DNA of 49,343 nt from NCBI GenBank assembly GCA_035632515.1, contig DASQGR010000149.1:1-49343 (forward strand), in the 5' to 3' direction. Made by a program: the position numbers and the translations under genes. A model generated the notes under the pieces. The model was not told the origin of the DNA and made no database searches. It was given only the letters and a program-made list of their open reading frames with translations. This DNA is from Stellaceae bacterium. Lineage in GTDB: Bacteria > Pseudomonadota > Alphaproteobacteria > ATCC43930 > CGMCC-115725. Shown piece by piece: positions 21,641 to 47,769 of the stretch (its first letter is position 1; every line of letters starts with the position of its first letter).

Positions 21641-21712
21641 CCGGCGACCGTCGCCCTTGGAAATTTCCGCCGACCCACCAGATCAGGCGCAGCTCGTGCG
21701 AGGGAGGTTTGC

Positions 21713-31772: not shown

Positions 31773-34223
31773 TTGGCCGCAGATTTCAAGGTTGTCATCA
31801 TTGGCTCCGGACCGGCCGGCTTGAGCGCCGCCGTTCACGCCGCCAAGGGCGGCGTGTCCCATGTGCTGCTCGAGCGTACCGACCACATCAACAACACCAT
31901 CTTCCGCTATCAAAAGCGCAAGCACGTGATGGCGACCCCCGAGGTCCTGCCGCTGCGCAGCGACCTCGAGTTCGAGGAGGAGTCGCGCGAGGAGTTGATC
32001 GACAGTTGGACCGGGGGTTCCACCGCAGCGGGGATCAACATCCGGTTCAACACCGAGGTGTCGGCGATCAAGGGCGAGAAGGGCAATTTCCAGGTTCAGC
32101 TCGTTGGCGGCGGGGTGATCTCCGCCGAATACGTCGTCCTCGCCATCGGGGTGCAGGGCAATTTCAACCGGTTGAGGGTTCCCGGCGCCGATCTGCCTTT
32201 CGTCCAGTACCAGCTCGACGATCCCGACGAATACCGGGAGGAGAAGATCGCGGTCATCGGGGTCGGCGATGCCGGCATCGAGAACGCGCTGGCGCTGGCG
32301 ACCAACAACGAAGTCTACGTGCTCAACCAGAAGGACGACTTCCCGCGGGCCAAGGCCGGCAATCGCGCGCTGATCATGGCCGCGGTTGCCAAGAACCCGG
32401 ACGAGGCGGGCTCGATCAACCACGTCGTCAACGTCGAGACGCAGGAAATCGTCGCCGGCCCGCCGGGCCAGCCCGGCGAACTGGTGCTGCACCGCGCCGA
32501 CGGCGCAACGGTGCGCGTCGCGTGCAACCGGGTCATCGCGCGCATCGGCGCACAGCCGCCGCGCCGCTTTCTCGAAGATTGCGGCATCGTCTTCACCAGC
32601 GCCGACCGCAACGCCATCCCGGAGGTGTCGGAGACCTACGAATCAGGGGTCAAGGGACTCTATATAATAGGGGCGCTGGCCGGGTACCCGCTGATCAAGC
32701 ATTGCCTCAACCAGGGCTACGAGGTCATCGAGTACATCCTCGGCAACGAGCTCCCGCCGGCCGACGAGCCGCTGATCCAGGCAAAGCTGACCCCCGAGAA
32801 GATACGTGTCCTCGATCCGAGCAAGGACGCGATGACCGGCGCCGAGCTGATCGGCTACATCAGAGCACGGGCGCCGATGTTTTCGGGCCTCAAGCCGATC
32901 CAGATCCGCGAATTCCTGATCCATGCGGAGCTGCATCGGCTGCAGCCCGGCGACGTCGTCTTCCGCCGGGGCGAGTCGACCAATTCGCTGTACACCATCC
33001 TCGACGGTCAGGTCGGCATCCAGATCGACCCGACCAATCCGGCGGAGATGGTTCATCTCGGACCCGGCCAGTTCTTTGGCGAGATGGGGCTGATCTCCGG
33101 CCGCAAGCGCACCGCCACGGTCGTCGCCGCCCAGCCGAGCCTGTTGCTCGAAGTCGACCGCAACACGATGATCCGGCTGGAGCGTTCGGAAGCATCGATC
33201 AAGCAGGCCATCGATTCGGCCGCCGTGATTCGCCAGATCAAGACGTTCCTGGCCCCGCAGGTCGAAGACAGCCTGCTCGCCGAGGTGGTGGCGACCTCCA
33301 AGATCGTCGAATTCAAGCCCGACCAGAAACTGATCGAAGAGGATGCCGAGGACGATGCGGTCTATCTGATTCGCAAGGGCTCGGTGACGGTGTCGATGCG
33401 GGTCGGCGGCAAGGATGTCGTGCTCGCCTATGTCCCGGCCGGCAATTATGTCGGCGAAATGGCGATGATCACCCGCCGCCGCCGTGCCGCAACGGTCACC
33501 GCCGCCAGCGTTACCGAGGCGATCCGCATCGACAGCAGCGCCTTTCGCAAGCTGCTCGACCGCGATCCCGACCTGCGTCGACGGGTCGAGGACAAGCTCG
33601 AGCAGCGGCTGGCCGAGCGCAACCAGATGCAGCAGAACGCCGAGACCGGCGATCTGATCAAATTCCTGGTGCGCGAGGGGCTGGGGGAGGCGACCAACGT
33701 CCTGCTGATCGACGAATCGCTCTGCGTGCGCTGCGACAATTGCGAGAAGGCCTGCGCCGAGACCCATCACGGCGTCAGCCGGCTCAACCGCGAGGCCGGG
33801 CCCACCTTTGCGATGGTGCACGTGCCGACCTCGTGCCGGCATTGCGAAGACCCGCATTGCATGACCGATTGTCCGCCGGACGCGATCCACCGCGCGCCGA
33901 ACGGCGAGGTGTTTATCAACGACCAATGCATCGGCTGCGAGAATTGTAAGAACAACTGTCCCTACGGCGTCATCCAGATGGCGGCGGTGCCGGAAGAAAA
34001 GCCCGGCCTGCTGAGCTGGCTGCTGTTCGGCTGGGGCGCCGGCCCGGGCGAGGACAAATCGCCGGAGGGCATGGCCAAGCGCACCGGCGGCAAGCATGCC
34101 GTCAAATGCGATATGTGCAAGGATCTGGCCGGACCGGCCTGCGTGCGCGCCTGCCCGACCGGCGCGGCGATTCGCGTCGATCCGGCCGGGTTCATCGACG
34201 TCATGCGCCAGGCCCAGGCATGA
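31773..34223 (+). CDS. fusion protein: TrxR-type FAD/NAD(P)H oxidoreductase + two cNMP-binding domains + four-cluster [4Fe-4S] ferredoxin domain
   Basis: 816 aa with a TTG start.
- **aa 4-320:** KVVIIGSGPAGLSAA and KIAVIGVGDAGIE dinucleotide folds, with no redox CxxC.
- **aa ~365-480 and ~495-605:** FGEMGLISGRKRTATV and VGEMAMITRRRRAATV cNMP signatures.
- **aa 651-794:** four Cys motifs, CVRCDNCEKAC, CRHCEDPHCMTDCP, CIGCENCKNNCP and CDMCKDLAGPACVRACP. Confidence 0.85.
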   Translation: MAADFKVVIIGSGPAGLSAAVHAAKGGVSHVLLERTDHINNTIFRYQKRKHVMATPEVLPLRSDLEFEEESREELIDSWTGGSTAAGINIRFNTEVSAIKGEKGNFQVQLVGGGVISAEYVVLAIGVQGNFNRLRVPGADLPFVQYQLDDPDEYREEKIAVIGVGDAGIENALALATNNEVYVLNQKDDFPRAKAGNRALIMAAVAKNPDEAGSINHVVNVETQEIVAGPPGQPGELVLHRADGATVRVACNRVIARIGAQPPRRFLEDCGIVFTSADRNAIPEVSETYESGVKGLYIIGALAGYPLIKHCLNQGYEVIEYILGNELPPADEPLIQAKLTPEKIRVLDPSKDAMTGAELIGYIRARAPMFSGLKPIQIREFLIHAELHRLQPGDVVFRRGESTNSLYTILDGQVGIQIDPTNPAEMVHLGPGQFFGEMGLISGRKRTATVVAAQPSLLLEVDRNTMIRLERSEASIKQAIDSAAVIRQIKTFLAPQVEDSLLAEVVATSKIVEFKPDQKLIEEDAEDDAVYLIRKGSVTVSMRVGGKDVVLAYVPAGNYVGEMAMITRRRRAATVTAASVTEAIRIDSSAFRKLLDRDPDLRRRVEDKLEQRLAERNQMQQNAETGDLIKFLVREGLGEATNVLLIDESLCVRCDNCEKACAETHHGVSRLNREAGPTFAMVHVPTSCRHCEDPHCMTDCPPDAIHRAPNGEVFINDQCIGCENCKNNCPYGVIQMAAVPEEKPGLLSWLLFGWGAGPGEDKSPEGMAKRTGGKHAVKCDMCKDLAGPACVRACPTGAAIRVDPAGFIDVMRQAQA

Positions 34224-35155
34224 GCGTCAGCGAACAGGCGGCCGCTCGGCCCAACGCCGCTTCCGCCGCCGCGCCGCGAACGGACCGGCACACCTCCTTC
34301 CTCGCCTATGAAGGGTATCGCTATCTGAAATGGGCGCTCGCCGCGGTGGTGGCGGCGATCCTGCTTTATTGGCTGGTGCCGCCCTACGGCGCGCGCTACG
34401 GCGGCGGCTGGGCCGGGTACACGCTGGGGACGGTGGGCGCCCTGCTGATCCTGTGGCTGACCTGGTTCGGCTATCGCAAGCGCACCTATGCCTCGAGCCT
34501 GGCCGGCGCGGCGGATGTCGGCGGCAATCCCGTCGAGGATCCGAGCCGGCTGGCGCGGCGACTGTCGGCGCATGTCTACCTCGGCAGCGCGCTGCTGGTC
34601 ATCGCGACGCTGCACACCGCGTTCAATTTTCATTGGAACATCCACACCCTGGCCTATGCACTGATGTGCATCGTCATTTTCAGCGGCATGTTCGGGGTTG
34701 TCGCCTATGCCCGCTATCCGCGGCGGATGACCGAGAATCGCGAAAACCTCACCCTGGGGCAGATGCTCACCCGTGTCGGCAGCATTGACGGCGAGTTGCG
34801 CCGCGGCGCGATGCAGCTCGACGATGCGACGGTCGCCATGATCGAGAATACGGTCGAGACGACCGCGATCGGGGGCTCGATGTGGCGGCAATTGTCGGGG
34901 CGCTATCCCCGGTGCACCACCGCCGCGGCGATCGCCCGCATGGATGCGCGCGCCGAGGCGGTCCCGCCCGAGCTGCAGGATGCCTGGCGCCAGACCCGGC
35001 TGAGGCTGGAGGAAAAGGCCGCCCTTCTGACGCGCCTGCGCCGCGACATCCGCTTCAAGGCGATGATGGAGGTGTGGCTCTTCCTGCATGTTCCGCTGAC
35101 CTTCGCCCTGATTGCCGCGCTTGTCGCCCACATCGTCGCGATCTTTTTCCTTTAG
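34220..35155 (+). CDS. 5-TM membrane protein with two H-x13-H pairs (candidate di-haem b-type transmembrane electron carrier)
   Basis: ATG 34220 overlaps the upstream stop (ATGA). TM3 is HVYLGSALLVIATLH (His codons at 34571 and 34613). TM5 is HVPLTFALIAALVAH (His codons at 35087 and 35129). An Arg-rich loop of about 95 aa separates TM4 and TM5. Confidence 0.7.
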   Translation: MSVSEQAAARPNAASAAAPRTDRHTSFLAYEGYRYLKWALAAVVAAILLYWLVPPYGARYGGGWAGYTLGTVGALLILWLTWFGYRKRTYASSLAGAADVGGNPVEDPSRLARRLSAHVYLGSALLVIATLHTAFNFHWNIHTLAYALMCIVIFSGMFGVVAYARYPRRMTENRENLTLGQMLTRVGSIDGELRRGAMQLDDATVAMIENTVETTAIGGSMWRQLSGRYPRCTTAAAIARMDARAEAVPPELQDAWRQTRLRLEEKAALLTRLRRDIRFKAMMEVWLFLHVPLTFALIAALVAHIVAIFFL

Positions 35156-35225: not shown

Positions 35226-36986
35226 ATGGAGGTTGAGTTCACCTTTCTCACCCAGCGCGGCACCGCGGTGATGCGCCGGTCTCAGCGAGCCAGCGCCGAC
35301 AGCGTGCGGCTGGGTCGCGGCACCGACAACGAGGTGCCGCTGGGCGATATTCGCGTCGGGCTGCGGGTGGCGCAGCTCGTGCGGCGTCCCGACGGGATCG
35401 CGATCGAGAAACTCGGGGCGATGCCGCTGCAGGTAAACGGCCAGTCGGTCGACAATGCGATGCTGCATGTCGGCGACGAGATTCGGCTCGGCCCCTACCG
35501 GATCGAGGTCACGGCACCGCCCGAGGGCTGCGACGGCGCGATCCAAATCGAACTGGCGGAGCCGCTGGCCTCGGCGACCGACCCGGTGCGGGCGAGCTCC
35601 CGAATCGGCCTGGAGCACGCCGGCTTCAGCAAGCGCATCGCCTCGTGGACCGGCGTCTTGGTGCTGGCGGTTATCTGCCTGGCGGTGCCGCTCATCGTCT
35701 TTACCAGCGGCGCGTTGACGCCGTGGCACAAGGACACGCCGGCACCGCATGCGACGACCCTGGTCGGGCTGTCGTGGAATACCGGCGAATTCTCGAATTC
35801 GCATCGATTTTTCGCCAAGAATTGCGCGACCTGCCATGAGGGCAAGTTCTCGCGCGTCGCCGACACGGCATGCCTTGCCTGCCACGCGGCGGTCGGCAGC
35901 CATGTCGAGCACGGCGTCAAGCTCGGCTCGGCGGGCGAGCAGCTGGCGGAGTCCCGCTGTATCGATTGCCATACCGAGCACCGCGGCGTGCGCGGCTCGG
36001 TGATCCGCACTGCCGCGCTCTGTCTCGACTGCCATCGCGGGCTCGACAAGACCGCTCCGGAGGCCGGGGTAAAGGCGGTCGGCGGCTATCCGGCCGGCCA
36101 CCCCCAGTTCCGCGCAACGCTTGTCGCCGATGCCGCAAAAAAGCAGAACGTGCGGGTCGAGCTCGGCAGCAAGCCGGCGCCGGCCGATCATCCGGGGATC
36201 AAATTCTCGCACGCGGCCCATCTCGTGCCGGGCGGCTTCCCGAAGCTCCACTACAAGGAGATGGCCTGCGCCGATTGCCATGTCCCGGAGCCGGGCGGCC
36301 AAAGCTTTCAGCCGATCACGTTCAAAGGCCAGTGCCAGAGCTGCCACAACGACAATCTGACATTCGACAGCGTCGCGTTGCCGTGGTCCGGCGCCAAGGT
36401 ACCGCATGGCGATGACAGCGCGGTCGTCGCCGGGGTGGTCAACTTCTATGCCGCGCAGGCAGTGCAGAACGGCGCCGCCGCGCCTGCCGCAACGCCCGCG
36501 GTCGAGCGGCGCGGCGCCGGCATGCCGACTTCGCTGGCAAGCGCGGCGCCGGCCAGCGTCCAGGCGTGGATACGCGACAAATCGCAGGCCGCGCTCCGGG
36601 TGATTTTCGACGAGAAGCGCGGCTGCGCCTATTGCCACTACGGCACCGGGGCGGACGGTGCCATCGACACCGGCAAGGTGATGGCGAGCCTGGCGGCAGA
36701 CAAGGAACCGCTGAAGGTGATCGCCGCGGTCGAGATGCGCACCCGGTTTCTGCCCAACGCGGTCTTCGACCATTCCCAGCACCGCGGCGTGAAGTGCGAG
36801 GAATGCCATGCCAGCCGCCAGTCCCAGGCAAGCGCCGACGTGCTGATCCCGGGCATCGAGACCTGCAAGACTTGCCACGGCGCCGAGGACGTCCACCTGC
36901 AGGTCAAGTCGACCTGCATTACCTGCCACGTCTTTCACCGCAGCGAGTTGGGGTTGATGCACATGACCGCGGAGGCGCCAAAATGA
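35226..36986 (+). CDS. FHA-like domain / single TM / decahaem c-type cytochrome
   Basis: 586 aa. aa ~1-98 are FHA-like (VRLGRGTDNEVPLGD...LQVNGQSV...VGDEIRLGPYRIEV). The TM helix spans aa 139-160 (WTGVLVLAVICLAVPLIVF). There are ten CxxCH motifs, with first Cys at aa 200, 216, 245, 266, 348, 370, 467, 524, 547 and 564. Confidence 0.85.
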   Translation: MEVEFTFLTQRGTAVMRRSQRASADSVRLGRGTDNEVPLGDIRVGLRVAQLVRRPDGIAIEKLGAMPLQVNGQSVDNAMLHVGDEIRLGPYRIEVTAPPEGCDGAIQIELAEPLASATDPVRASSRIGLEHAGFSKRIASWTGVLVLAVICLAVPLIVFTSGALTPWHKDTPAPHATTLVGLSWNTGEFSNSHRFFAKNCATCHEGKFSRVADTACLACHAAVGSHVEHGVKLGSAGEQLAESRCIDCHTEHRGVRGSVIRTAALCLDCHRGLDKTAPEAGVKAVGGYPAGHPQFRATLVADAAKKQNVRVELGSKPAPADHPGIKFSHAAHLVPGGFPKLHYKEMACADCHVPEPGGQSFQPITFKGQCQSCHNDNLTFDSVALPWSGAKVPHGDDSAVVAGVVNFYAAQAVQNGAAAPAATPAVERRGAGMPTSLASAAPASVQAWIRDKSQAALRVIFDEKRGCAYCHYGTGADGAIDTGKVMASLAADKEPLKVIAAVEMRTRFLPNAVFDHSQHRGVKCEECHASRQSQASADVLIPGIETCKTCHGAEDVHLQVKSTCITCHVFHRSELGLMHMTAEAPK

Positions 36987-38968
36987 CCGATTCGCGCCGA
37001 CCGAGATTTCTCCATCATCCGGCGTTTCGTGCCGCCATGGCGGTGCTTTCCGTATGGTGCATGGCGCCGGGCGGCTGTGGCGGCGGCAGCAGCGGCGCCA
37101 ACAACAGCAACCCGAACGCGATCACCCCGGCGGCGCCGGTTGCCGACACCAGCCCCAACCTGACCGAGAGCGACGTCAACACGATCGTGCTGCAGGCGAT
37201 CAACGAGGCGACCGCCCGCGGCCGGCCGGCGACCATTGCCGTGGTCGATCGGGTCGGCAATGTGCTGGCGGTGACCCAGATGGCAGGCGCGCCGGTCTTG
37301 GCGACGGTCACCTCGGGGCGCGGCGTGACGACCGGGCTCGAGACGGTTCAGGTGCCGACGACGCTCGCGGCGCTCGCCAAGGCCTATACCGGCGCCTACC
37401 TGTCGTCGAACGGCAACGCCTTCAGCACCCGCACTGCCAACCAGATCGTCCAAGAGCATTTCAACCCCGGCGTCCGCGGCACGCCGGGCGGGCCGCTGTT
37501 CGGGGTGCAGTTCAGCCAGCTCGCCTGCTCCGATTTCAACACCGCCGCCTCCCCCGTTGCCGGCGGCACCAATGCCGGGCCGCATCGCTCGCCGCTCGGC
37601 TTTTCCGCCGATTCCGGCGGGTTGCCGATCTACAAGAACGGCGTCCTCGCCGGCGGTATCGGGGTGATGACCAAGACCATCTATGGCGCCAACCTCAATA
37701 TTTTTGCCGTGCCGATCGATGACGACGAGGTGGTGGCTATCGCCGGAACGACTGGATACGCGGCGCCGCCGGCGATTACCGCCGACAACATCGCCGTCGG
37801 CGGCCTGACGCTGCAATATATCGACGCCTCCAGTGCCAATCTTGCCGCGCCGGTGTCGGCTGCGGGCACCTTCACGCCGCTGCCGGTGGCCGGGTACTGG
37901 GCCGGGCCCGCCGCCGGTCACACGGCGAATGCCGGGTTGATCTACGGCAGCGCGGACGGCGCTTCGGGAGTGGCTCCGGACGGCGCACTCGGCCCGGTGA
38001 TCTACCCCGGCACCACCCAGACCTCCTACGTCTTCACCGACGGCGCCGGCCATATCCTCTACCAGCCGACCGCAGGGGCGATGCCGGCAGACGGCAATGC
38101 GATCACCGCGGCGGAGGCGAAAGGGCTGACTACCGCGGCGCTCAATGTCGCCTACTCGGCCCGTGCCGCCATCCGGGTGCCGACCAACAGCTTCGCCCAG
38201 GTGACCGTCACCGTGGTCGATCTCGACGGCAATGTGCTGGCCCAGGCGCGCACCCCTGACGCACCGATCTTCGGCGCCGACGTGTCGCGGCAAAAGGCGC
38301 GCTCGGCCGTGTTCTTTTCGCGGCCCGACGCGGCAGCGAAGATCAACGCGATCACCGCTCCGGCGAGCACCGTGACCGGCACTTTTGCCGACTACATCAC
38401 CCGCTCGCAGTTGTTGATCGGCAGCGGCACCTTCTCCAACAGTTTGGCTTGGGCGGCGGTGTCGATCGGCGATGTGGCGCGGCCGTTTTATCCGGACGGC
38501 ATCGACGGCAACCAGCCGGGATCGCTGAGCCTGCCCTTCGACCGATGGAGCGTGTTTTCGACCGGCCTGCAGGTCGACCTGGTGACGAGCGATATCGTTG
38601 CCGGCACGACCGGGGCGCTGGCGCCCGCGACTGGCTGCGGCAACGCCAACGGCCGAGGCTTGCCGCCGACCGCGAGCGGCAAGACCCAGCTCGCCAACGG
38701 ACTGCAGATCTTCTCCGGGTCGGTGCCGATCTACCGCGGCAATGTCCTGGTCGGCGCCGTCGGCGTCTCCGGTGACGGCATCCAGCAGGACAGCCTGATC
38801 TCGTTCCTCGGCCTGGACCGCTTCGCCGCGCAGGACGGCGCAAACCCCATCGCCAACGCGCCCGCGGCAATCCGTGTCGACCTCCTCAAGCCGGCCGGCG
38901 TCAACCTGCGCTACACCAACTGTCCGGCGGCCCCCTTCGTCGACTCCACCGTGCAAAACCCGTGCTGA
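36983..38968 (+). CDS. probable lipoprotein with two GlcG/HbpS-like (DUF336) domains
   Basis: ATG 36983 overlaps the upstream stop (ATGA). The signal is followed by Cys and a Gly/Ser linker (MAPGGCGGGSSG). There are two DUF336-like units, ending in GGLPIYKNGVLAGGIGV and SGSVPIYRGNVLVGAVGVSGDGIQQD. Confidence 0.7.
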   Translation: MTDSRRPRFLHHPAFRAAMAVLSVWCMAPGGCGGGSSGANNSNPNAITPAAPVADTSPNLTESDVNTIVLQAINEATARGRPATIAVVDRVGNVLAVTQMAGAPVLATVTSGRGVTTGLETVQVPTTLAALAKAYTGAYLSSNGNAFSTRTANQIVQEHFNPGVRGTPGGPLFGVQFSQLACSDFNTAASPVAGGTNAGPHRSPLGFSADSGGLPIYKNGVLAGGIGVMTKTIYGANLNIFAVPIDDDEVVAIAGTTGYAAPPAITADNIAVGGLTLQYIDASSANLAAPVSAAGTFTPLPVAGYWAGPAAGHTANAGLIYGSADGASGVAPDGALGPVIYPGTTQTSYVFTDGAGHILYQPTAGAMPADGNAITAAEAKGLTTAALNVAYSARAAIRVPTNSFAQVTVTVVDLDGNVLAQARTPDAPIFGADVSRQKARSAVFFSRPDAAAKINAITAPASTVTGTFADYITRSQLLIGSGTFSNSLAWAAVSIGDVARPFYPDGIDGNQPGSLSLPFDRWSVFSTGLQVDLVTSDIVAGTTGALAPATGCGNANGRGLPPTASGKTQLANGLQIFSGSVPIYRGNVLVGAVGVSGDGIQQDSLISFLGLDRFAAQDGANPIANAPAAIRVDLLKPAGVNLRYTNCPAAPFVDSTVQNPC

Positions 38969-41037
38969 GCGTGCCCCGGCGTATCGACCGATCGCGGCGC
39001 GAGCGGCGACTGGGCCGCAGCGCGCTCGCGTTCATGGCCGCGATGACGGCGCTGACCGGCGCGGCCACGCCGCCCCACGCCTCGGTCGACATCGGCGAGC
39101 TGCGCCGCGACCGGCGCATGGCCGACGAGCTCTACTCGGCGACGACCGGCGACGCCGCCGCCTTCGAGAAAGCGCTAAAGACCCCGGTCCTGCGCAGCGA
39201 GCTCGAACGAACCCTCAACCGTCAGCTCTCCGACGAGACGCTCCAGGCGATGGCCTCGCACGCCCGTGCCGAGGCCGATTACTGGGCCTCCTATCGCCGC
39301 GGCATCGACATGGCGATCGGCGCCGAGGGCCCGTTGATCATGGGCCGCCGGGCGCCCGGCCGGGCCCCGCCGAGCTCGGAGGCCGAGCCCATCGTCAATC
39401 CGGCGGCGTTGCCGCCGCCCGAGCCGTTCGAGCGGGGCGGCTATGTCCCGGTGCAGGATCGCTGGCGCATTCTCGACGCGCTCGGCCGCCGTGAGAACCT
39501 GCTCGATCCCTACAACACCAACACGCTGAAGGCGGATAAGCCGATCTTCGGCGAGGACTGGTTCGTCAACGTCGCGGCGATCGTCGATATTCTCTACGAG
39601 CCGGCGCGGGTGCCGCTGGGGGTCGGCGCGCAATACATCGCGCGGCCGCTCGAAAACAATACATTCGGCCGCTACGGCCGCACCATGCTCAACCAGACCG
39701 ATATTCTCAGCGTCTCGTTGATCAAGGGCGACACCGCGTACAAGCCGCCCGATTTGGAGTTCCGCCTGACCCCGGCGTTCAATTTCAACCATACCGATGT
39801 CGGCGAAATCGGCGTCCTCAACATCGATCCGGCCTACGGGCAAACGCGCAACGACAATTTCATCGGCCTGCAGGAAGGGTTCATCGACTATCACTTCCGC
39901 AACGTCTCCGAGTATTACGATTTCGATTCGGTCCGCGTCGGCATCCAGCCGTTCAACGCCGATTTCCGCGGCTTTTTGTTTCAGGACAACCAGCTCGGCG
40001 TGCGCTTGTTCGGCGATCGCGACGCCAATCGCTGGCAGTACAACCTCGCCTATTTCCGCCGGCTCGAAAAAGACACCAATAGCGGCCTCAACGATATCGG
40101 CCAGGCAGTGCGGCAAGACGGCGTCTTTATCGCCAATTTGTTCCGCCAGGATTTCCCGGTGCACGGGTTCACCTCGCAGATTGCCTTTCTGCGCAACGAC
40201 AACCACGAGGGCGGCGATTTTCACTTCGACAAGAACGGGTTCCTCGTTCGCCCGTCGCAGATCGGCGACAATCGTGGCTACAACTATGACGCCAATTATC
40301 TCGGCTTCAACGGCGACGGCCATTTCGGCCGCGTCAACCTGACGACCTCGGCCTACTATCTGTTCGGCCATCTGAGCCACAATCAGTTTGGCGCGCCGGG
40401 CAACAAGGGCTCTGACATCAGCGCTTTCTTCGTTGCCGCCGAGCCGTCGATCGATTTCGACTGGGCGCGGTTCCGGTTGTCCGGCCTCTACGCCAGCGGC
40501 GCCCGGCATCCGCAAAGCGGTACGGTCGGCGGGTTCGATGCAGTGTTCGAGAACCCGCAATTCGCCGGTGCCGACTCGAGCTTCTGGATCCGCCAGTCGA
40601 TCCCGCTCATCGGCGGCGGCGGCGTGGCGCTCAACACCCCGAACGGCGTGCTCGCCGACCTGCGCTCGTCGAAGGGCGAGGGCCAGTCGAACTTCCTCAA
40701 TCCGGGGATCATGCTCGCCGGTATCGGCGGCGATTTCGACATTCTGCCCGAGCTGCGTTTGTCGACCAATTTCAACTATCTGCGCTTCGACACTACCGCC
40801 CCGCTCGAATTCCTGCGCCACCAGGCGAACATTCCCAACTCGATCGGCTGGGACCTGTCGGCGGCGCTGACCTACCGGCCGCTATTCACCCAGAATATCG
40901 TCTTCCGGCTCTCCGGCGCGGTGTTGCTGCCCGGCGAAGGCACCAAGGCGCTGTTCAATACGCCGGGCGGCCTCGGCCTCTTCGGCAATGACGGTCTGCT
41001 CTACTCGGTTCTGGCCAACGTGATCGTGAACTATTGA
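38962..41037 (+). CDS. large outer-membrane beta-barrel-like protein with a helical N-terminal extension
   Basis: 691 aa. GTG 38962 overlaps the upstream stop by 7 nt. It has a signal-like N-terminus, a helical segment of about 100 aa, then long runs of alternating-hydrophobicity strands rich in Y/F/N/G/D (NRWQYNLAYFRRLEKD, ISAFFVAAEPSIDFDWARFRLSGLYASG). The C-terminus ...VLANVIVNY ends in an aromatic residue. No family was recognised. Confidence 0.6.
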   Translation: MLSVPRRIDRSRRERRLGRSALAFMAAMTALTGAATPPHASVDIGELRRDRRMADELYSATTGDAAAFEKALKTPVLRSELERTLNRQLSDETLQAMASHARAEADYWASYRRGIDMAIGAEGPLIMGRRAPGRAPPSSEAEPIVNPAALPPPEPFERGGYVPVQDRWRILDALGRRENLLDPYNTNTLKADKPIFGEDWFVNVAAIVDILYEPARVPLGVGAQYIARPLENNTFGRYGRTMLNQTDILSVSLIKGDTAYKPPDLEFRLTPAFNFNHTDVGEIGVLNIDPAYGQTRNDNFIGLQEGFIDYHFRNVSEYYDFDSVRVGIQPFNADFRGFLFQDNQLGVRLFGDRDANRWQYNLAYFRRLEKDTNSGLNDIGQAVRQDGVFIANLFRQDFPVHGFTSQIAFLRNDNHEGGDFHFDKNGFLVRPSQIGDNRGYNYDANYLGFNGDGHFGRVNLTTSAYYLFGHLSHNQFGAPGNKGSDISAFFVAAEPSIDFDWARFRLSGLYASGARHPQSGTVGGFDAVFENPQFAGADSSFWIRQSIPLIGGGGVALNTPNGVLADLRSSKGEGQSNFLNPGIMLAGIGGDFDILPELRLSTNFNYLRFDTTAPLEFLRHQANIPNSIGWDLSAALTYRPLFTQNIVFRLSGAVLLPGEGTKALFNTPGGLGLFGNDGLLYSVLANVIVNY

Positions 41038-41041
41038 GACA

Positions 41042-44000
41042 ATGTCGCTGCGCGCTCTGATAGTAGCTGGATTGATGGCATGGGCCGGCGTCTTCGTCGC
41101 GCCGTCGCTTGCCCGCGCCGAGGAATCGCCGGCCGCCCATGAGGAGAGCGCGCCGCCGGCCCCACAAAAGCAGTCGGAGGCTGCGGCGCGGCTCAAGAGC
41201 GCCGGGTGCATGAGCTGCCATACGGCGACCGACTCGGTGACGATGCATACCAGCCCCGGGGTCGTCCTCGGCTGCGCCGATTGCCATGGCGGCAACGCTG
41301 CGGTGTTTGCGCAAGGTGCGGCGCCGGGAACCCCGGAATACCGCAAAGCGCTCGACGCCGCTCATGTCCACCCGCTTCATCCCGAAGCCTGGAATTACCC
41401 GTCGAGCGTCAAGCCGCCGCGCACCTACACGCTGCTCAACAAGGAATCGCCGGCGTTCATCCGCTTTATGAACCCGAGCGACTACCGGGTGGCGCGCGAG
41501 GCCTGCGGCGCCTGCCATCTGAAGGAGATCGCCGCCAACGAGCGCAGCCCGATGGCGACGACCGCGATGTTCTGGGCGGCCGGCGCGTACAATAACGGCA
41601 TCCTGCCGTTCAAGCACTCGATCGTCGGCGAGGCCTATACCCGGGAGGGCGAGCCGGCGACCCTGCTCGATCCCAATCCCCCCAGCCCCGAGGCGAGCCG
41701 CCTGCACGGGATCGAGCCGAAATTCGTGCCGCTGCCGACCTGGGAGGTGTTTCCGACCGGCGACGTCTTCCGCGTCTTTGAGCGCGGCGGCCGCACCATC
41801 AACACGCAATTCCCCGAGATCGGCAATCCGAACTCGACCGGCGAGCTACAGAAGCTCGAGGAGCCGGGGCGGCCCGATCTGAAGCAATCGAACCGCGGCC
41901 CCGCCACCGGGCTGCGGGTGTCGATCCCGATCCTCAACATCACCAAGACCCGGCTCAACGACCCGACCACCTGGTTCCTTGGCACCAACGACAATCCCGG
42001 CGACTATCGCAACTCAGGCTGTGCCGCGTGCCATGTCGTCTACGCCAACGACCGCGACGTGCAGGAGGGCGGGCCCTACGCCGCCTACGGCAATCGCGGC
42101 ACCGGCGCCGGTATCGACCCGACCATCCGCAAGGGCGAGTCGGGGCACCCGATCGTGCATCGCATGACCACGGCGATCCCGACCAGCCAGTGCATGATCT
42201 GCCACATGCATCAGCCGAACCTGTTCCTCAACAGCATGCTCGGCTACACGATGTGGGATTACGAGACCGGCGCGCCGCAGATGTGGCCGAAGCGGCAGAA
42301 ATACCCGACCGACACCGAGATGCGCGCCGCACTTGAGCGCAACCCCGAGGGGGCGGTGGTGCGCGGCAGATGGGCCGACCCGGAATTCTCGGCCAACGTC
42401 AACGAGCTCAACCCCAAGCTCAATGACACCCAGTTCGCCGACTATCACGGCCACGGCTGGAACTTCCGCGCGATCTTCAAGCGCGACCGCAAAGGCAACC
42501 TGCTCGACGACGACAACAACATCATCCCGGCCAGCGACCCGCAAAAATTCAAGAAGGCGGTGCACCTCGATTCGATCCACGTCGATTTTGGGATGCAATG
42601 CGTCGACTGCCATTTCTCGCAGGACAACCACGGCACCGGCCATCTCCACGGCGAGATCCAGGGTGCGATCGAGATCACCTGCGCCGATTGCCACGGCACT
42701 GCGACCAAGCTGCCGGATCTGAAGACCCACGGACCGGCGGCGCCGCCGCGGGGCACCGACATGTCGGCCTTGCGCACTGCCGATGGCCGCGCCCGTTTCG
42801 AATGGCGTGGCGACAAGCTGTTCCAGCGCTCGGCGGTCTATCCGGGGCTCGAGTGGCAGGTCACCCTGGTCAAGGACACGGTCACCCCGGGCAACCCGCA
42901 CTACAATCCGCGGGCGGCCCGCGCCAAGCTGATGTCGAAGGGCAACTCGATGGCCTGGGGGCCGGGGGTGCCGACAAATCAGCTCGCGCACGGCAGCGAC
43001 GAGATGGCGTGCTACACCTGCCATTTGTCGTGGACGACGAGCTGCGCCGGCTGCCACCTGCCGATCGAGGCCAATCAGCACACCGAACGACACCGCTATG
43101 AAGGCGAGACCACCCGCAATTTCGCCACCTACAATCCGCAAGTGGCGCGCGAGGACATGTTCCAGCTTGGCCGCCACAGCACGGTGAAGAACAACATCAT
43201 CGCCCCGATCGCGTCGCGCTCGGCGCTGGTGCTGTCGTCGACCAACATCAACCGCGAGCACATCTATGTGCAGCAGCCGCCGGTGTCGTCGTCCGGGTTC
43301 TCGGCCCAGGCGTTCTCGCCTCACTACCCGCATACCGAGCGGCGCACCGAGACCAAGACCTGCACCGACTGCCACATCTCGGCGCAGAACGACAACAACG
43401 CGATCATGGCCCAGCTGCTGCTGCTCGGGACCAATTTCGTCAATTTTGTCGGGCTCAATTCCTGGGTCGGCGAGGAACACGACATCGAGGCGGTGCGTGT
43501 CACCGAATGGGACGAGCCGCAGGCGGTGATCGGCAGCTACCTGCACCGCTATGCCTACCCGGACTACTACAAGAAGCACCTCGCCGAAGGCCGCAAACTG
43601 GAGGAGGCCCACGGTCATGCCTCCAACGACGCCAAATGTCTGCAGCTGCGCGGCGAATACCTCTTCGTCTCCGAGGGCTCCAACGGGACGCGGGCCTATG
43701 ATGTCGCCAGCATTGCCAACAAGGGCGTTTCCGAGCGCATCATCACCGCGCCCTTCTCGGCCCTCGGCCACGACACCCATATCGCCTCGAAAAACGCGAC
43801 CTGCGTCGTGCTGCCGACCGATCAGCCGATCAACCCGCTGCGCAATGCGGGCAAGAACGAGGCACTCGATTTCAGCCAGGATTACGGCCCGGTGATGCGC
43901 GGGGCGAACGAAGAACAGGTGATGCACCCGATCTACAACTACGCCTACATCACCGATTCCGTCGAAGGGCTGATCCTGACCAATGTCAACACGCTGCAGG

Positions 44001-44821
44001 ACCAGGAGCCGCGCAACAACTTCTTCACCCGGGCGCTGACCTGGAACGAGAACGGCATCCTTAACGGAGCCCGCTACCTGACCATCGCCGGGACCAAGTT
44101 CTACGTCACCGCCGATGCCGGCATCGTCGAGCTCGACATGGACGACCCGCTGCATCCCAAGCTCGTCGCGGTGATCCCCATCCGCGATGCCCGGGCGACA
44201 GTGGTGCAATTCCGCTATCTGTTTGTCGTCGGCGCCAGCGGGCTGGAAGTCGTCGACGTCACCAACCCGGCCCGGCCGGTGGTGGTGCCGGGCGCGCGCG
44301 TGCCGCTCGCCGATGCGCGGCGCATCTTTGTCGCTCGCACCTATGCCTATATTGCCGATGGCCGCGACGGGCTGGCGATCGTCGATGTCGAGCGGCCGGA
44401 CCACCCGTTCCTCAAGATGCAGTACACCGCCGACGGCAAGATCACCGACGCGCGCGATGTGGTCGTCGCCTCGACCAATGCCTCGCTCTTTGCCTATGTC
44501 GCCGACGGGGTGAATGGGCTCAAGGTGATCCAGTTGCTCTCGCCGGTCAGCCAGCCCAATTTCTACGGCTTTTCGCCGGAGCCGAAACCGGAGCTGATCT
44601 CGTGGTACCCGACCGCCTCGCCGGCGCTGTCGTTGTCGCGCGGGCTCGAGCGCGACCGCGCGGTCGACGAGACCGGACACCAGATCGCGGTATTTGGCCG
44701 CATCGGCTCGCGCCCGTTCACCCTCAAGGAAATGCAGCAGCTCTATATGGGCCCTGACGGCAAGCCGTTCACTGTCACCGATCAGGTGCAAAAGCAGGAC
44801 TTCGTGCCGGCGCGGCATTAA
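41042..44821 (+). CDS. secreted decahaem c-type cytochrome with a C-terminal LVIVD-repeat beta-propeller region
   Basis: 1259 aa with Sec signal MSLRALIVAGLMAWAGVFVAPSLARA. Ten widely spaced CxxCH motifs have first Cys at aa 56, 78, 155, 327, 384, 520, 547, 657, 668 and 774. aa ~865-1165 (nt 43634-44536) carry LVIVD-type repeats (YLFVSEGSNGTRAYDV, YAYITDSVEGLILTNV, FYVTADAGIVELDM, YLFVVGASGLEVVDV, YAYIADGRDGLAIVDV, FAYVADGVNGLKVIQL). Confidence 0.85.
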   Translation: MSLRALIVAGLMAWAGVFVAPSLARAEESPAAHEESAPPAPQKQSEAAARLKSAGCMSCHTATDSVTMHTSPGVVLGCADCHGGNAAVFAQGAAPGTPEYRKALDAAHVHPLHPEAWNYPSSVKPPRTYTLLNKESPAFIRFMNPSDYRVAREACGACHLKEIAANERSPMATTAMFWAAGAYNNGILPFKHSIVGEAYTREGEPATLLDPNPPSPEASRLHGIEPKFVPLPTWEVFPTGDVFRVFERGGRTINTQFPEIGNPNSTGELQKLEEPGRPDLKQSNRGPATGLRVSIPILNITKTRLNDPTTWFLGTNDNPGDYRNSGCAACHVVYANDRDVQEGGPYAAYGNRGTGAGIDPTIRKGESGHPIVHRMTTAIPTSQCMICHMHQPNLFLNSMLGYTMWDYETGAPQMWPKRQKYPTDTEMRAALERNPEGAVVRGRWADPEFSANVNELNPKLNDTQFADYHGHGWNFRAIFKRDRKGNLLDDDNNIIPASDPQKFKKAVHLDSIHVDFGMQCVDCHFSQDNHGTGHLHGEIQGAIEITCADCHGTATKLPDLKTHGPAAPPRGTDMSALRTADGRARFEWRGDKLFQRSAVYPGLEWQVTLVKDTVTPGNPHYNPRAARAKLMSKGNSMAWGPGVPTNQLAHGSDEMACYTCHLSWTTSCAGCHLPIEANQHTERHRYEGETTRNFATYNPQVAREDMFQLGRHSTVKNNIIAPIASRSALVLSSTNINREHIYVQQPPVSSSGFSAQAFSPHYPHTERRTETKTCTDCHISAQNDNNAIMAQLLLLGTNFVNFVGLNSWVGEEHDIEAVRVTEWDEPQAVIGSYLHRYAYPDYYKKHLAEGRKLEEAHGHASNDAKCLQLRGEYLFVSEGSNGTRAYDVASIANKGVSERIITAPFSALGHDTHIASKNATCVVLPTDQPINPLRNAGKNEALDFSQDYGPVMRGANEEQVMHPIYNYAYITDSVEGLILTNVNTLQDQEPRNNFFTRALTWNENGILNGARYLTIAGTKFYVTADAGIVELDMDDPLHPKLVAVIPIRDARATVVQFRYLFVVGASGLEVVDVTNPARPVVVPGARVPLADARRIFVARTYAYIADGRDGLAIVDVERPDHPFLKMQYTADGKITDARDVVVASTNASLFAYVADGVNGLKVIQLLSPVSQPNFYGFSPEPKPELISWYPTASPALSLSRGLERDRAVDETGHQIAVFGRIGSRPFTLKEMQQLYMGPDGKPFTVTDQVQKQDFVPARH

Positions 44822-44867: not shown

Positions 44868-45572
44868 ATGGATCGGCGTTTGTTTCTATCCTTGCTGGGT
44901 GCGGCATTGGCGTCGCCGTCGGTGTCACAGGCCCAACCGGCCGCTCCACGATTGCGCCGACTGAAACTGGTCAACGCCCATACCGGCGAGACCTTCAACG
45001 GACCCTATCGCGACGATGGCGGCCCGATCGCTGCGGCGATGGAGGACCTCTCCGCCTTCTTGCGCGACCATCATTCCGGCGAGACGATCGACTACGATGT
45101 CGGGGTCATCGATTTTCTCGCCGGGGTGATGGAGGCGGTCGGCGCCGGCCAGGCGACGATCCTTTCGGCCTATCGCACCCGGGCGACCAACCAGATGCTG
45201 GCGCGCACCACGTTCGGCGTCGCCGACAACAGCCAGCACATCTACGGCCGCGCGCTCGACATCTACCTGCCGGTGCGGCTCGATACCGCAATGGAGGTGG
45301 CGCGGGCGATGCAGCGCGGCGGTGTCGGCTGGTATCCGGATTCGCACTTCATGCACCTCGACAGCGGGCCGGTGCGCAACTGGACCCTGGGCGGCGAAGG
45401 GTTCGAGCGTTTGTTGCTCGAGTTGCGGCGGATCATCGCCAAGGGCGACCTCTCGGTGACGCCCAAGGGTGAGTTGCGGGTCGGCGACGAGCAGCGGCCG
45501 CTATCGGCAAAAGAGCGGTTGGCCCTGCACCGCCTCCTCAGCAAGGCCGAGGCGGCTGTCGCCTCTCACTGA
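44868..45572 (+). CDS. DUF882 / YcbK(MepK)-like peptidase M15 family protein with a Tat signal
   Basis: MDRRLFLSLLGAALASPSVSQA carries a twin-arginine motif. SQHIYGRALDIY (HxxGxAxD) and SHFMHLD are metal-ligand motifs typical of DUF882. Confidence 0.8.
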   Translation: MDRRLFLSLLGAALASPSVSQAQPAAPRLRRLKLVNAHTGETFNGPYRDDGGPIAAAMEDLSAFLRDHHSGETIDYDVGVIDFLAGVMEAVGAGQATILSAYRTRATNQMLARTTFGVADNSQHIYGRALDIYLPVRLDTAMEVARAMQRGGVGWYPDSHFMHLDSGPVRNWTLGGEGFERLLLELRRIIAKGDLSVTPKGELRVGDEQRPLSAKERLALHRLLSKAEAAVASH

Positions 45573-46054
45573 GGCTTCGTCTCGGGGGCGGCGGTGCGGG
45601 AGAGCTTTAGCGTCACTTCGCCCGCGGGCGATGCCAGCACCACCTGGTCCTGGGCGACGATTTTGACCGTCCAGCCGTCGAGCGTGTCGCCCTCGCCAAT
45701 TTCCATGCGCCGCGTGCCTTCCGCGACAAAGGCATGCCGCTTCGCGCCGGTGCCGACGATCCCGAGCAGGCGATAGCGGCTGTCGATCGACGGACCGGCG
45801 GGCGCGACGGAAACCCCGGGCGGCGCCTGTCGCGACGGAGCAAAAAGCGGGCGCTCGACGATCGCGGCAAGGCTGGCGAGGGGCGGCAGCGCCGCGAGCG
45901 CCGGCGGCGGTTTCGTCGTCTCCTGGGTGGCGGCGTGCCGGTTCGACGGGGTCGGCGGCACCAGCCAGGGCCAGACGGCGAGGGCGGCGAATAGCGCCGT
46001 TGCCAGGCCGAGCAGCGAAGCGGGCCGCAGTGCCGGCAATTTCGCCGCGATCAC
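45566..46054 (-). CDS. gspN: type II secretion system protein at the GspN position (PilP/GspC-HR-like C-terminal domain)
   Basis: GTG 46054 overlaps the gspM stop (GTGA). It has an N-terminal TM (LLGLATALFAALAVWPWLV) and a C-terminal region YRLLGIVGTGAKRHAFVAEG...GDTLDGWTVKIVAQDQVVLAS. The assignment rests mainly on gene order. Confidence 0.55.
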   Translation of the reverse strand: MIAAKLPALRPASLLGLATALFAALAVWPWLVPPTPSNRHAATQETTKPPPALAALPPLASLAAIVERPLFAPSRQAPPGVSVAPAGPSIDSRYRLLGIVGTGAKRHAFVAEGTRRMEIGEGDTLDGWTVKIVAQDQVVLASPAGEVTLKLSRTAAPETKPQ

Positions 46055-46602
46055 GGGGCCGGCTCCGTCTTGAAGCCGGCGATGTCGAGCTGGAAATCGA
46101 GCCGCGGCGCGGCTGCGCCCGGTGACGGTGCGGGCGACTGAACCTGCAGGTTGTCGGCGTAGAGCACCGGGCGCGCCGATTCGATTGCGTAGATCAGGCT
46201 GCGCAGGCCGGGCATGTCGCCGCTGGCGCGGATGCGGACGCCGATCCGGGTCGCACCGGGCAGCGCCTCGCTGCGCAGCATCTGCAATCCCTGCACCTGG
46301 ATACGGGCGGCGGTGGCGGCGCCTTTGACCGTTTCTTGCAGCATGGCCGCGGCCTGCGAATCGGGCATTTCGGGATAAAGCAAGCTCCGACCGGCCGCCG
46401 ACGGCAAGGTGGCGGGTGTGGGGCCGTCGGCGAGCGCCCGATAGCGGGCCAGTACCGCAGCCTTGGCGGCCAGCCGATCGTCGGCGGCATCGATCAGCCC
46501 GCGATAGGCGCCGACCGGCCCGAACCAGAACGCGACAATCAGCGCCGCCAGGATCGCGAGCGCCGCGGCTCGCCTCGCCGTGGCCCGGTCGGTCAGGCTC
46601 AC
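46051..46602 (-). CDS. gspM: type II secretion system protein M
   Basis: 183 aa with a GTG start. It has a single N-terminal TM followed by a periplasmic domain. Its position between gspL and gspN, with 4-nt overlaps on both sides, supports the call. Confidence 0.7.
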   Translation of the reverse strand: MSLTDRATARRAAALAILAALIVAFWFGPVGAYRGLIDAADDRLAAKAAVLARYRALADGPTPATLPSAAGRSLLYPEMPDSQAAAMLQETVKGAATAARIQVQGLQMLRSEALPGATRIGVRIRASGDMPGLRSLIYAIESARPVLYADNLQVQSPAPSPGAAAPRLDFQLDIAGFKTEPAP

Positions 46603-47675
46603 GGCTTTGTTTCCGCCAACGTTGCGCCGAGCTGGAAGTGCTCCAGCCCCGACGCCGGTTCACGCGTGATCGGGGTGCGAAAGACCACGCCGGCGACGTT
46701 GCCGCCTTTCTCCAGTGCCAGCGCCATGGTCGCCGCCGACGGCGACAGCCCATCCATGACCACCTCGCGGCCACTCACCGACAGCGATAGCAGGTACGAG
46801 CCGTCGGGAACGTCGCGGCTCAGCGCGTCGAGCACCGTGACGAGCGGGGGCCGGCCGGCACGCAGGCCGAGAACCGCGTCGCTGCGTTCGCTGTCGTGGC
46901 GCTGAGCCTCGCCGGCACGCAAAGCCGCCTCGGCACGCGGCTTCAGCACCGCCAGCTCATGCTCGATTCGGGTGAGCTGTGCCTGCTGCGCCAGCGGCCA
47001 GGACACCGCCGCCGCAACCGCCGCCAGCGCCGCCGCAAAACCCAGGCGGCGGGTGGCCGGCGATGCTGCGGCCCGGGCGCCGAGCACGGCAGCAGGCAGG
47101 AATAGCGGCTGCGAGTCGGCTCCCGCTAGCACTGCGATCCCCGCCGGCCGCAGCCCCGCCTCGGCGAGCACGGCGCCGATGCCGTCGACGACGTCGCGCG
47201 GCACCGCGACGATCTCGACCGCGATGGTCGCGCCGCCGCCATCGCCGCGCGGCACCAGCCGATGGTGGAAATAGACCCGCTTGGCCGGGAAGGGGAAATG
47301 CCGTGCGATCTCGAATTCGACGATGCGGTCGAGCTGGCCCTTTGCCCCCGCGGGGAAATCGACAATCTTACTCAGTGCCCGCTCGGGCGGGATCTCGACG
47401 ACAACGCCTCGCTGCTGCGCTGGCGGGATCAGGTTGCGCACTTGCGCCGGGTCGGCGGACTGCCAATCGACCTGGCCGATCGGCCGCTGGCCCTGGCGCA
47501 ACAGCCAATAGCGCTCGCCGGCCTCGATTGTCACCGTGCCGCGGCCCCGCGTTACCGCCCACCGCCGCAGGTCGTCGCCGCAGCCCCGCAACTCGCCCAG
47601 CCACCAGCCGAGCGCGCGGCCGATCCGGGCGGGGGGACGCGCGCTTTTCAGCGGGTTGTTTGCAGCAATCGTCAT
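46599..47675 (-). CDS. gspL: type II secretion system protein L
   Basis: 358 aa from ATG 47675. It has a cytoplasmic actin-like N-domain (IVEFEIARHFPFPAKRVYF), a central TM (LGFAAALAAVAAAVSWPL) and a periplasmic C-domain. It sits between gspK and gspM. Confidence 0.72.
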   Translation of the reverse strand: MTIAANNPLKSARPPARIGRALGWWLGELRGCGDDLRRWAVTRGRGTVTIEAGERYWLLRQGQRPIGQVDWQSADPAQVRNLIPPAQQRGVVVEIPPERALSKIVDFPAGAKGQLDRIVEFEIARHFPFPAKRVYFHHRLVPRGDGGGATIAVEIVAVPRDVVDGIGAVLAEAGLRPAGIAVLAGADSQPLFLPAAVLGARAAASPATRRLGFAAALAAVAAAVSWPLAQQAQLTRIEHELAVLKPRAEAALRAGEAQRHDSERSDAVLGLRAGRPPLVTVLDALSRDVPDGSYLLSLSVSGREVVMDGLSPSAATMALALEKGGNVAGVVFRTPITREPASGLEHFQLGATLAETKP

Positions 47676-47769
47676 GGGCGGTCGACGGCCTCGCAGCCGG
47701 AACGAAACGACCTTAAAGGAATTTCCGCCGATGCAAAATCGGTTCCGTGGCGCCGTTGCTTGCCGTTGC

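Follow-up and report, generated by a model that had tools for sequence, protein, structure and literature searches.

In a 49,343-nucleotide stretch of DNA from a Stellaceae bacterium (contig DASQGR010000149.1), referred to here as the window, the gene at 41042..44821 on the + strand encodes a protein of 1259 amino acids in which a decahaem c-type cytochrome is joined to an LVIVD beta-propeller. The gene is the last of six that are packed into a single operon, and its linkage to neighbouring genes is kept in different phyla. It is probable that the decahaem-propeller protein is part of an electron conduit that crosses the cell envelope. The chances are about even that it is, more exactly, the distal outer subunit of such a conduit, one that would be driven by NAD(P)H, would carry electrons outwards and would be a variant of the PCC4/ptd gene clusters that have been described in other bacteria.

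The decahaem-propeller protein

A sequence-only reading of the window had described at this position a 1259-residue open reading frame with ten CxxCH motifs spread over about 720 residues, and the count holds: the motifs begin at residues 56, 78, 155, 327, 384, 520, 547, 657, 668 and 774 and span 722 residues, compared with a mean of 0.02 motifs and a maximum of one in shuffled versions of the protein. The reading frame opens with ATG and has codon-position GC contents of 0.62/0.46/0.87, which are typical of coding DNA, on a contig of ~67% GC. The protein was also scanned for CxxCK and for long CXnCH motifs, and has neither. The public gene call (P0001) is 1248 residues long and starts 11 codons downstream of 41042; the start at 41042 provides a proper signal peptide and lies 4 nt past the stop of the upstream gene. 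The predicted signal peptide is of the Sec type and covers residues 1-26 (41042..41119, +), with MSLR, a hydrophobic core and a cut after ARA, ahead of EE, when the N-terminus is read by eye, which agrees with the earlier description of the protein as secreted; no lipobox Cys is seen by eye after it. To judge from the conserved CxxCH motifs and the export signal, the protein is a multihaem c-type cytochrome.

The C-terminal domain is an LVIVD beta-propeller (43457..44641, +), a family recognised by tandem repeats of ~42 residues that fold as a propeller. The Pfam model LVIVD (PF08309), a search that had been suggested along with the first description, reaches 59.2 bits, where the cut-off is 20.2 (E 2.5e-16), and 3 of the stretches pass on their own. 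Six LVIVD-like units are present at residues 874-888, 968-982, 1020-1033, 1060-1073, 1102-1116 and 1151-1165 (nt 43661-44536, where at least six repeats had been placed at nt 43634-44536), and a conserved tail follows to 44818. The propeller that had been predicted from the repeats is also what is modelled, as an AlphaFold2 model of residues 801-1259 is an all-beta propeller with a predicted local distance difference test (pLDDT) score of 83 and a predicted template modelling (pTM) score of 0.87. Foldseek gives 822 matches to this model at E <= 0.001, the top ones all being 6- to 8-bladed propellers, and its neighbours include AztD, WD40 proteins, BtuG2 and BamB.

The haem domain

The haem domain (41207..43375, +) takes in the ten CxxCH motifs at residues 56-778 together with ten invariant His that are candidate distal ligands, and is recognised from the motif scan, an alignment and a weak collinear similarity to the ExtM model NF040943. 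The alignment holds 131 full-length and diverse members of the family from three divergent subfamilies, and across it all ten haem motifs are >=97% conserved, with haem 3 appearing to be CX4CH in many relatives to judge from the alignment (A3) and the motif counts. Outside the motifs exactly ten His are invariant, H69, H108, H369, H373, H390, H508, H513, H530, H650 and H764. All ten haems of the protein are therefore probably bis-His ligated, a prediction from the aligned sequences that fits a relay. As the extra His equal the haems in number, none of the haems has to be open, which argues against an open catalytic haem. The same alignment output contains no propeller His or Cys that is conserved across the family, and C866/C921 are conserved in close relatives only; no cluster of His that might hold a metal cofactor is thus apparent, and a metal cofactor in the propeller was rejected.

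The wide spacing of the motifs had been taken as a sign of an enzyme-type fold rather than a compact haem wire, an idea that the sequence evidence does not support. The haem domain has ~80 residues per haem, and as this falls within the ordinary 60-70 +/- 30 residues per haem of multihaem cytochromes (PMC5566968) the spacing says little by itself. A search of the protein against the PDB with phmmer returned no match at E <= 1, and a profile made from 22 family sequences found nothing for HAO, Otr or MccA in the same database. The profile did match NrfA marginally (E 0.06-0.09, one di-haem stretch only) and ActA of alternative complex III (E 3e-4, the first three haems), and both matches are treated as similarity at the level of the motifs. 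Among Pfam models neither Cytochrom_C552 nor HAO matches at E <= 1, the only families above threshold are the generic LVIVD and Cytochrom_c3_2, with c3/c7 matches weak, and none of the curated NCBIfam cut-offs is reached. The check for membership of a characterised multihaem enzyme family that accompanied the first description thus yields no HAO, Otr or MccA match and only the marginal one to NrfA, and together with the ten-for-ten His this leaves the proposed enzyme fold unsupported.

Modelling of the haem domain was less informative, with an AlphaFold2 model of residues 41-840 (63-sequence alignment) being of low confidence (pLDDT 41, pTM 0.37) and giving nothing in Foldseek at E < 9. Within the domain, haems 1-2 resemble haems 6-7 (hhalign probability 94%), a repeat of a di-haem unit. 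Duplication of a whole pentahaem unit, as in MtrC, was considered and rejected, with the convincing repeat limited to the di-haem unit. Between the haems there are invariant non-haem residues, RLNDP, GTND.PGDYR and FADYHGHGW. The segment CMICHMHQPN, which had been singled out as conserved-looking, begins at residue 384, and ADYHGHGWNFRA begins at residue 466. CHMHQPN turned out to be one of two peptide patterns that retrieve relatives in at least 594 species genomes (GTDB, one genome per species).

Distribution of the family

The family is large and widely spread. Separate homologue searches, each with 8000 candidates scored, returned at least 7533, at least 6779 and at least 7960 significant homologues, those listed for the first of these searches being 65-85% identical to the protein over its full length. 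Members are found in Pseudomonadota, Acidobacteriota, Planctomycetota, Nitrospirota and several candidate phyla. Close relatives (62-85% identity) occur in Alpha-, Beta- and Gammaproteobacteria, the nearest to the window coming from Stellaceae and other alphaproteobacterial metagenome-assembled genomes, and divergent subfamilies of 40-50% identity with the same architecture are found in Acidobacteriota, Planctomycetota, KSB1, Nitrospirota, Rokubacteria, Calditrichota, Wallbacteria and Xenobia. Some members carry long extra segments in the alignment (A3), such as P0137 (1648 aa) and P0142 (1702 aa); P0137 is extended at its N-terminus by ~500 residues that are packed with additional CxxCH motifs, which suggests the N-terminal end of the haem domain as the point of entry for electrons.

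Among the cultured hosts are Limnobacter alexandrii LZ-4, Zavarzinia sp. CC-PAN008, Sinimarinibacterium flocculans DSM 104150, Sphingoaurantiacus capsulatus KCTC 42644 and Parahaliea maris HSLHS9, as well as Sphingobium herbicidovorans MH, in which the homologue WP_037469316.1 is named by PGAP only as 'multiheme c-type cytochrome'. The hosts are mostly ordinary aerobic heterotrophs of soil, freshwater and sea, not classic metal respirers. Database names of the relatives go no further than 'hypothetical', 'LVIVD repeat' or 'multiheme c-type cytochrome', and the searchable literature yielded no link between LVIVD and multihaem cytochromes. The statement in the sequence-only reading that there is no characterised representative is in keeping with these generic names and with the lack of a PDB match or a reached NCBIfam cut-off.

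The operon and its conservation

The six genes of the operon are co-directional, with gaps of -4, 70, -4, -7 and 4 nt, and the decahaem-propeller gene is last. The first (31773..34223, +) encodes a cytoplasmic flavoprotein of 816 residues that combines a thioredoxin-reductase-type FAD/NAD(P)H domain, two cyclic nucleotide monophosphate (cNMP)-binding domains and a HycB-like part for several 4Fe-4S clusters, as recognised from Pfam, NCBIfam and PDB matches, the last to YpdA, PKA regulatory subunits and HycB. When its sequence is read by eye, the thioredoxin-reductase-type domain is without the redox CxxC. The cNMP-binding domains suggest that the flavoprotein is gated by a cyclic nucleotide. 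Its stop overlaps by 4 nt the start of a gene for an inner-membrane protein of 311 residues (34220..35155, +) with a predicted di-haem b site. This protein has three strongly hydrophobic stretches on the Kyte-Doolittle scale, or five helices by a reading of the sequence, carries an SGxxG motif (FSGMFG) and has two HX13H pairs, H123/H137 and H295/H309 in alignment numbering, that are 98-100% conserved in 55 homologues.

The third gene (35226..36986, +) encodes a protein of 586 residues with an FHA domain, one transmembrane helix (hydrophobic segment at about residues 136-167) and a predicted periplasmic decahaem cytochrome of the c7/c3 type, with ten CxxCH motifs and matches to the Pfam models FHA, Cytochrome_C7 and c3_2. 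It is followed by a gene (36983..38968, +) for an HbpS-like repeat protein of 661 residues (PF03928, DUF336; Pfam E 1.7e-18, 3 stretches) that is probably a lipoprotein, a lipobox-like motif being present in 44 of 65 homologues and followed, where shown, by a Gly-rich linker; the orthologue in Sphingobium is named 'heme-binding protein' by PGAP.

The fifth gene (38962..41037, +) ends 4 nt before the decahaem-propeller gene, and its product of 691 residues is a probable outer-membrane beta-barrel to judge from the C-terminal signal YSxLxNLxLTY/F, which ends in an aromatic residue, is conserved in ~70 homologues and is typical of outer-membrane barrels. The copy in the window has no Pfam match, no PDB match by sequence or profile, and no match to MtrB_PioB; its homologues match Alginate_exp weakly in 2 of 21 cases and SlipAM in 1 of 21. 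A role as a Slam-like translocon for the lipoprotein was entertained and dropped for lack of support.

Linkage of these genes was followed in 82 related loci from distinct species, in which the neighbours were sought by tblastn, and essentially all loci with enough flank have the same neighbours around the homologue. The barrel gene adjoins it in 80, the remaining two being contig ends, the HbpS-like gene is present in 72, and a gene for a c554-like tetrahaem cytochrome is found in 50. The decahaem-propeller protein is the most conserved of the set at 62-85% identity, followed by the barrel (44-80%), the flavoprotein (41-68%), the HbpS-like protein (39-67%), the membrane protein (32-58%) and the FHA-decahaem (26-49%).

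The trio of HbpS-like, barrel and decahaem-propeller genes is also kept in loci of Planctomycetota, Acidobacteriota and Wallbacteria. The homology of the parts in loci L083-L085 is by BLAST (E 1e-40 to 1e-112 for the barrel), and in the Planctomycetota and Wallbacteria loci the barrel gene in the same position is 27-40% identical to that of the window. In L086 and L087, from Acidobacteriota and a second member of the Planctomycetota, the trio is identified only by Pfam labels and by the position of the genes. At its cytoplasmic end the system is made up differently in these distant phyla, with a NuoE/F-like NADH module and an FHA/cNMP/iron-sulphur protein in L084 (16213-20509), and in L086 (17097-22961) a protein of 1091 residues with FHA, c3-type, iron-sulphur and Pyr_redox matches that may be a fusion made by the gene call. 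An NAD(P)H-type flavoprotein is thus found in three architectures, those of the window, L084 and L086, an indication that NAD(P)H is the redox partner in the cytoplasm.

Regulatory genes were also seen near some of the clusters. FecR-like genes are found near 8 of the 82 clusters, and again in L084; they occur in Betaproteobacteria and a distant phylum, as in L001 (1-1779), L002 (1-3161) and L084 (400-3619), with a CHASE2 guanylate cyclase gene beside the FecR-like gene in L002 and L084, and Ser/Thr kinase genes lie near the cluster in L083 and L084. The nearby cyclase and kinase genes could provide the signals, cNMP and phosphothreonine, to which the cNMP-binding and FHA domains would respond.

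A putative electron conduit and its alternatives

The order and nature of the genes allow a path for electrons to be proposed in which the loading of the cofactors, the location of each protein, the direction of flow and the acceptor are all predicted. Electrons would leave NAD(P)H on the cytoplasmic flavoprotein and pass along its 4Fe-4S clusters, and would then cross the inner membrane through the two b haems of the di-haem b protein, which resembles those of NADPH oxidases (NOX) and ferric reductases. The membrane-anchored FHA-decahaem would take them across the periplasm to the decahaem-propeller protein, at the outer membrane with the barrel and the HbpS-like lipoprotein. Here the ten bis-His haems would be the last relay, and the propeller may dock or bind a partner, a surface or a substrate. 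Binding of cNMP and recognition of phosphothreonine by the FHA domain would gate the flux. The surface-displayed or substrate-binding redox role that had been suggested for the protein agrees with its conserved neighbours, at least as an outer-membrane or surface-associated role.

A number of points weigh against this proposal. The protein lacks a lipobox and its neighbour is only predicted to be a barrel, with a crude count of amphipathic strands in the barrel candidate giving 16, not above the 12.5 +/- 3.1 of shuffled sequences. The outward direction is a guess from the analogy with NOX, and for PCC4 inward flow was proposed by He et al. (PMC5566968). Most of the hosts are aerobic heterotrophs that are not known to depend on mineral respiration, and the family is without any experimentally characterised member. 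The very high conservation of the protein (62-85%, vs 26-49% for the FHA-decahaem) would be in keeping with a true enzyme too, and so would the tetrahaem partner found in 50 of 82 loci; this window lacks the tetrahaem gene.

The enzyme that these last points bring to mind would be a multihaem oxidoreductase of the periplasm that turns over a small soluble molecule, such as a nitrogen, sulphur or selenium oxyanion, hydroxylamine, NO or peroxide, with the outer-membrane protein as a channel for the substrate and the FHA-decahaem and c554-like tetrahaem as redox partners. Such an enzyme is improbable, although not without attractions. For a cytochrome the protein shows an unusual degree of conservation across Alpha-, Beta- and Gammaproteobacteria and has many invariant non-haem residues, and the adjoining tetrahaem gene recalls the pairing of HAO and c554. 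The combination of haem c with a beta-propeller is a known enzyme design, used by cd1 nitrite reductase and hydrazine synthase. The best curated match of the protein is ExtM, from a Geobacter cluster for selenite and tellurite reduction that has the porin-like ExtI. Against this, the ten haems are matched by ten invariant His outside the motifs, so that none is obviously open, and neither CxxCK nor a long CXnCH motif is present. At the profile level the protein resembles NrfA only marginally and HAO, Otr and MccA not at all. The propeller has no family-wide conserved His and no apparent cluster to hold a metal, and ExtM is itself without a demonstrated catalytic role. The high conservation of the decahaem-propeller protein compared with the neighbouring decahaem is still in favour of it being more than a wire.

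The same conduit might instead run inwards, with the protein oxidising an extracellular or periplasmic donor such as Fe(II), Mn(II) or reduced humics and the electrons being passed through the di-haem b protein to the quinone pool or the cytoplasm. This direction is drawn for PCC4, which occurs in Zetaproteobacteria and in Hyphomicrobium iron or manganese oxidisers (PMC5566968), and an inner module like that of the window is found in the Fe(II) oxidiser Ferrigenium straubiae, where it is expressed under all tested conditions (bioRxiv 10.64898/2026.01.22.701106). The FecR-type genes near 8 of the 82 clusters, and again in L084, could be counted on the same side. Inward flow nevertheless seems unlikely, as all three independent architectures of the cytoplasmic partner are those of an NAD(P)H-type flavoprotein, the reduction of NAD(P)+ with electrons from Fe(II) is strongly uphill with no energy-coupling subunit seen, and the majority of hosts, Sphingobium, Limnobacter and Zavarzinia among them, live as ordinary aerobic heterotrophs.

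A non-metabolic role is very unlikely. HbpS of Streptomyces is a redox-stress sensor partner, and its likeness in the operon, the cNMP-binding and FHA domains of the system and the Ser/Thr kinase and CHASE2 guanylate cyclase genes near some loci could speak for a device that senses or signals redox state. LVIVD repeats were originally described from cell-surface proteins (PMC2447325), which would suit a haem-handling or adhesion protein as well. Neither a sensor nor an adhesin has need of the complete wire from cytoplasm to outer membrane that 20 c-type haems, two b-type sites, several iron-sulphur clusters and a flavin would make up, and the regulatory domains are fused to redox proteins, not to output domains.

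A further and more doubtful refinement of the outward, NAD(P)H-driven conduit is that the decahaem-propeller protein is the terminal module of a very widespread but so far unrecognised two-membrane counterpart of NADPH oxidase or ferric reductase, gated by cNMP and FHA, that exports electrons from NAD(P)H to the surface of aerobes, where the decahaem-propeller protein would reduce an acceptor outside the cell. Candidate roles for such a system would be the production of extracellular superoxide, or the reductive mobilisation of Fe(III) or Mn oxides by aerobic heterotrophs. If a conduit of this general kind is present, aerobes own a common and regulated route for electron transfer through the envelope, with a bearing on iron acquisition, on extracellular production of reactive oxygen and on the redox cycling of humics. 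The regulatory domains for cNMP binding and FHA recognition are built into the redox proteins themselves. The proposal is testable in culture, with the whole cluster present in Sphingobium herbicidovorans MH (locus B6S01_RS18425 with its neighbours), Limnobacter alexandrii LZ-4 and a Zavarzinia strain.

Surroundings of the operon in the window

Directly downstream of the cluster are type II secretion genes (GspM-, GspL- and GspK-like, 46051-48708, -). The same adjacency is found in L003, L008 and L009, with a GspK-like gene alone near L064, and is absent from the other 78 loci. As it is thus seen in only 4 of the 82 related loci beside the window, the linkage is at most a hint that the decahaem-propeller protein is exported to the surface. 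A gene for a DUF882/peptidase M15 protein (44868-45572, +) comes just after the decahaem-propeller gene and is probably unrelated, as the only other cluster with this neighbour is that of the closest relative, L003.

Further upstream a cytochrome bd oxidase subunit I (12233-13774, -) and a molybdoenzyme of the xanthine dehydrogenase family (15513-17828, +) fit an aerobic or microaerobic host. A stretch of lower GC content at 18000-21642 (0.59-0.62 vs ~0.67 elsewhere) has few convincing open reading frames and may be the remnant of an integrated element; it includes a Crp/Fnr-type regulator (19082-19822, +) and ends at a tRNA-Thr(TGT) gene (21569-21642). A scan of the window with Rfam found only a tRNA, and scans for promoters and terminators were uninformative.

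Comparison with known systems

MtrCAB, PioAB/MtoAB and the Geobacter Pcc systems are arrangements in which a barrel gene adjoins decahaem genes and is linked to an inner-membrane electron-transfer protein, as is the case in the window. The models for MtrC/OmcA are below threshold on the decahaem-propeller protein (PF22113, 19.5 vs 30 bits; TIGR03507, 18.1 vs 209.3 bits), which is also not a lipoprotein, and the barrel has no MtrB_PioB match. The inner end of the system differs too, being an NAD(P)H flavoprotein and a di-haem b protein in the window and not a quinol dehydrogenase such as CymA.

The best curated match, ExtM (NF040943), reaches 71.6 bits against a cut-off of 800. Pieces of the decahaem-propeller protein at residues 51-89, 508-561 (E 5e-15) and ~650-780 are collinear with profile positions 17-50, 255-309 and 379-502, and both clusters hold a porin-like gene (ExtI in Geobacter) and other cytochromes. 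ExtM (GSU2935) is a 12-haem cytochrome from the cluster extHIJKLMNOPQS; at ~599 residues and 12 haems, and with no propeller, it is a different protein, and the ext cluster has a Rieske/cytochrome b pair and a selenoprotein which, like ExtKL, are lacking in the window. Membership of the ExtM family was rejected on score and context.

In NOX and ferric reductases, as in the window, an NAD(P)H flavoprotein part on the cytoplasmic side is combined with transmembrane helices that carry two HX13H pairs. They differ in that the flavoprotein and the membrane domain of the window are separate proteins with iron-sulphur clusters between them, and in that the chain in the window would run on through ~20 c-type haems across a second membrane. 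The HX13H haem-b pattern has been noted for PCC3/PCC4 as well as for NOX/FRE domains (PMC5566968).

It is PCC4 that comes closest. As described by He et al. in 2017, it is a putative cluster of genes for a porin, for cytochromes with 4, 5 and 10 haems, for an iron-sulphur protein (pfam13247) and for an inner-membrane protein in which five helices are combined with SGxxG and two WX3HX13H motifs (PMC5566968). A second description, from a 2024 preprint, is that of the operon ptdABCDEFG, likewise putative, the function of which was called 'completely unknown'. It encodes a pentahaem cytochrome with a beta-sandwich that falls in the NrfA COG (PtdA), a porin (PtdB), an FAD/NAD(P) oxidoreductase (PtdC), a tetrahaem cytochrome (PtdD), a protein with cNMP-binding domains and 4Fe-4S clusters (PtdE), a ferric-reductase-like membrane protein (PtdF) and a decahaem cytochrome (PtdG) (bioRxiv 10.1101/2023.11.21.568154). 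From the matching descriptions ptd appears to be the PCC4 cluster.

Set beside these published descriptions, which are what the proteins of the window were compared with, the likeness is considerable. A porin-type gene adjoins a multihaem cytochrome gene; the cNMP-binding 4Fe-4S protein and the FAD/NAD(P) oxidoreductase are both there, fused in the window into the 816-residue flavoprotein (PtdC+PtdE); the membrane protein has SGxxG, two HX13H and, by a count by eye, five helices. The order of cNMP/iron-sulphur protein, membrane protein and decahaem is that of ptdE-F-G, and most of the related loci (50 of 82) have a tetrahaem cytochrome. There are also differences, in that the place of PtdA beside the porin is taken by the decahaem-propeller protein, there is a probable HbpS-like lipoprotein in addition, an FHA domain forms part of the decahaem encoded after the membrane protein, and the cluster of the window has neither a pentahaem nor a tetrahaem gene. 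The top matches listed for the divergent subfamilies include no Zetaproteobacteria or Hyphomicrobium names. Identity with PCC4/ptd was rejected, given that neither the haem counts (4/5/10) nor PtdA fit, and the cluster is retained as the closest relative.

The inner half of the system has a counterpart in Ferrigenium straubiae, where an FHA-nonahaem cytochrome, a five-helix membrane protein and a 4Fe-4S protein were described as novel (bioRxiv 10.64898/2026.01.22.701106). The inner modules are alike, each with FHA, one transmembrane helix, a periplasmic multihaem part and five-helix and 4Fe-4S proteins, but the Ferrigenium cluster as described is without the barrel, HbpS-like and decahaem-propeller genes, which suggests that the decahaem-propeller protein is part of an outer module which the inner one may have or lack.

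Since it fits the porin-cytochrome idea and the inner module of PCC4/ptd, the system of the window is not categorically new. No description of the propeller-decahaem outer module was found in the searchable literature. The system looks modular, with a common inner module of NAD(P)H, flavin, iron-sulphur clusters, b haems and decahaem to which alternative outer modules are joined. In this way PCC4, ptd and the FHA-cytochrome of Ferrigenium, three separate sightings in the literature, are brought together in one modular system, and the decahaem-propeller protein would be a new outer module in a class of putative porin-cytochrome systems that has hardly been described.

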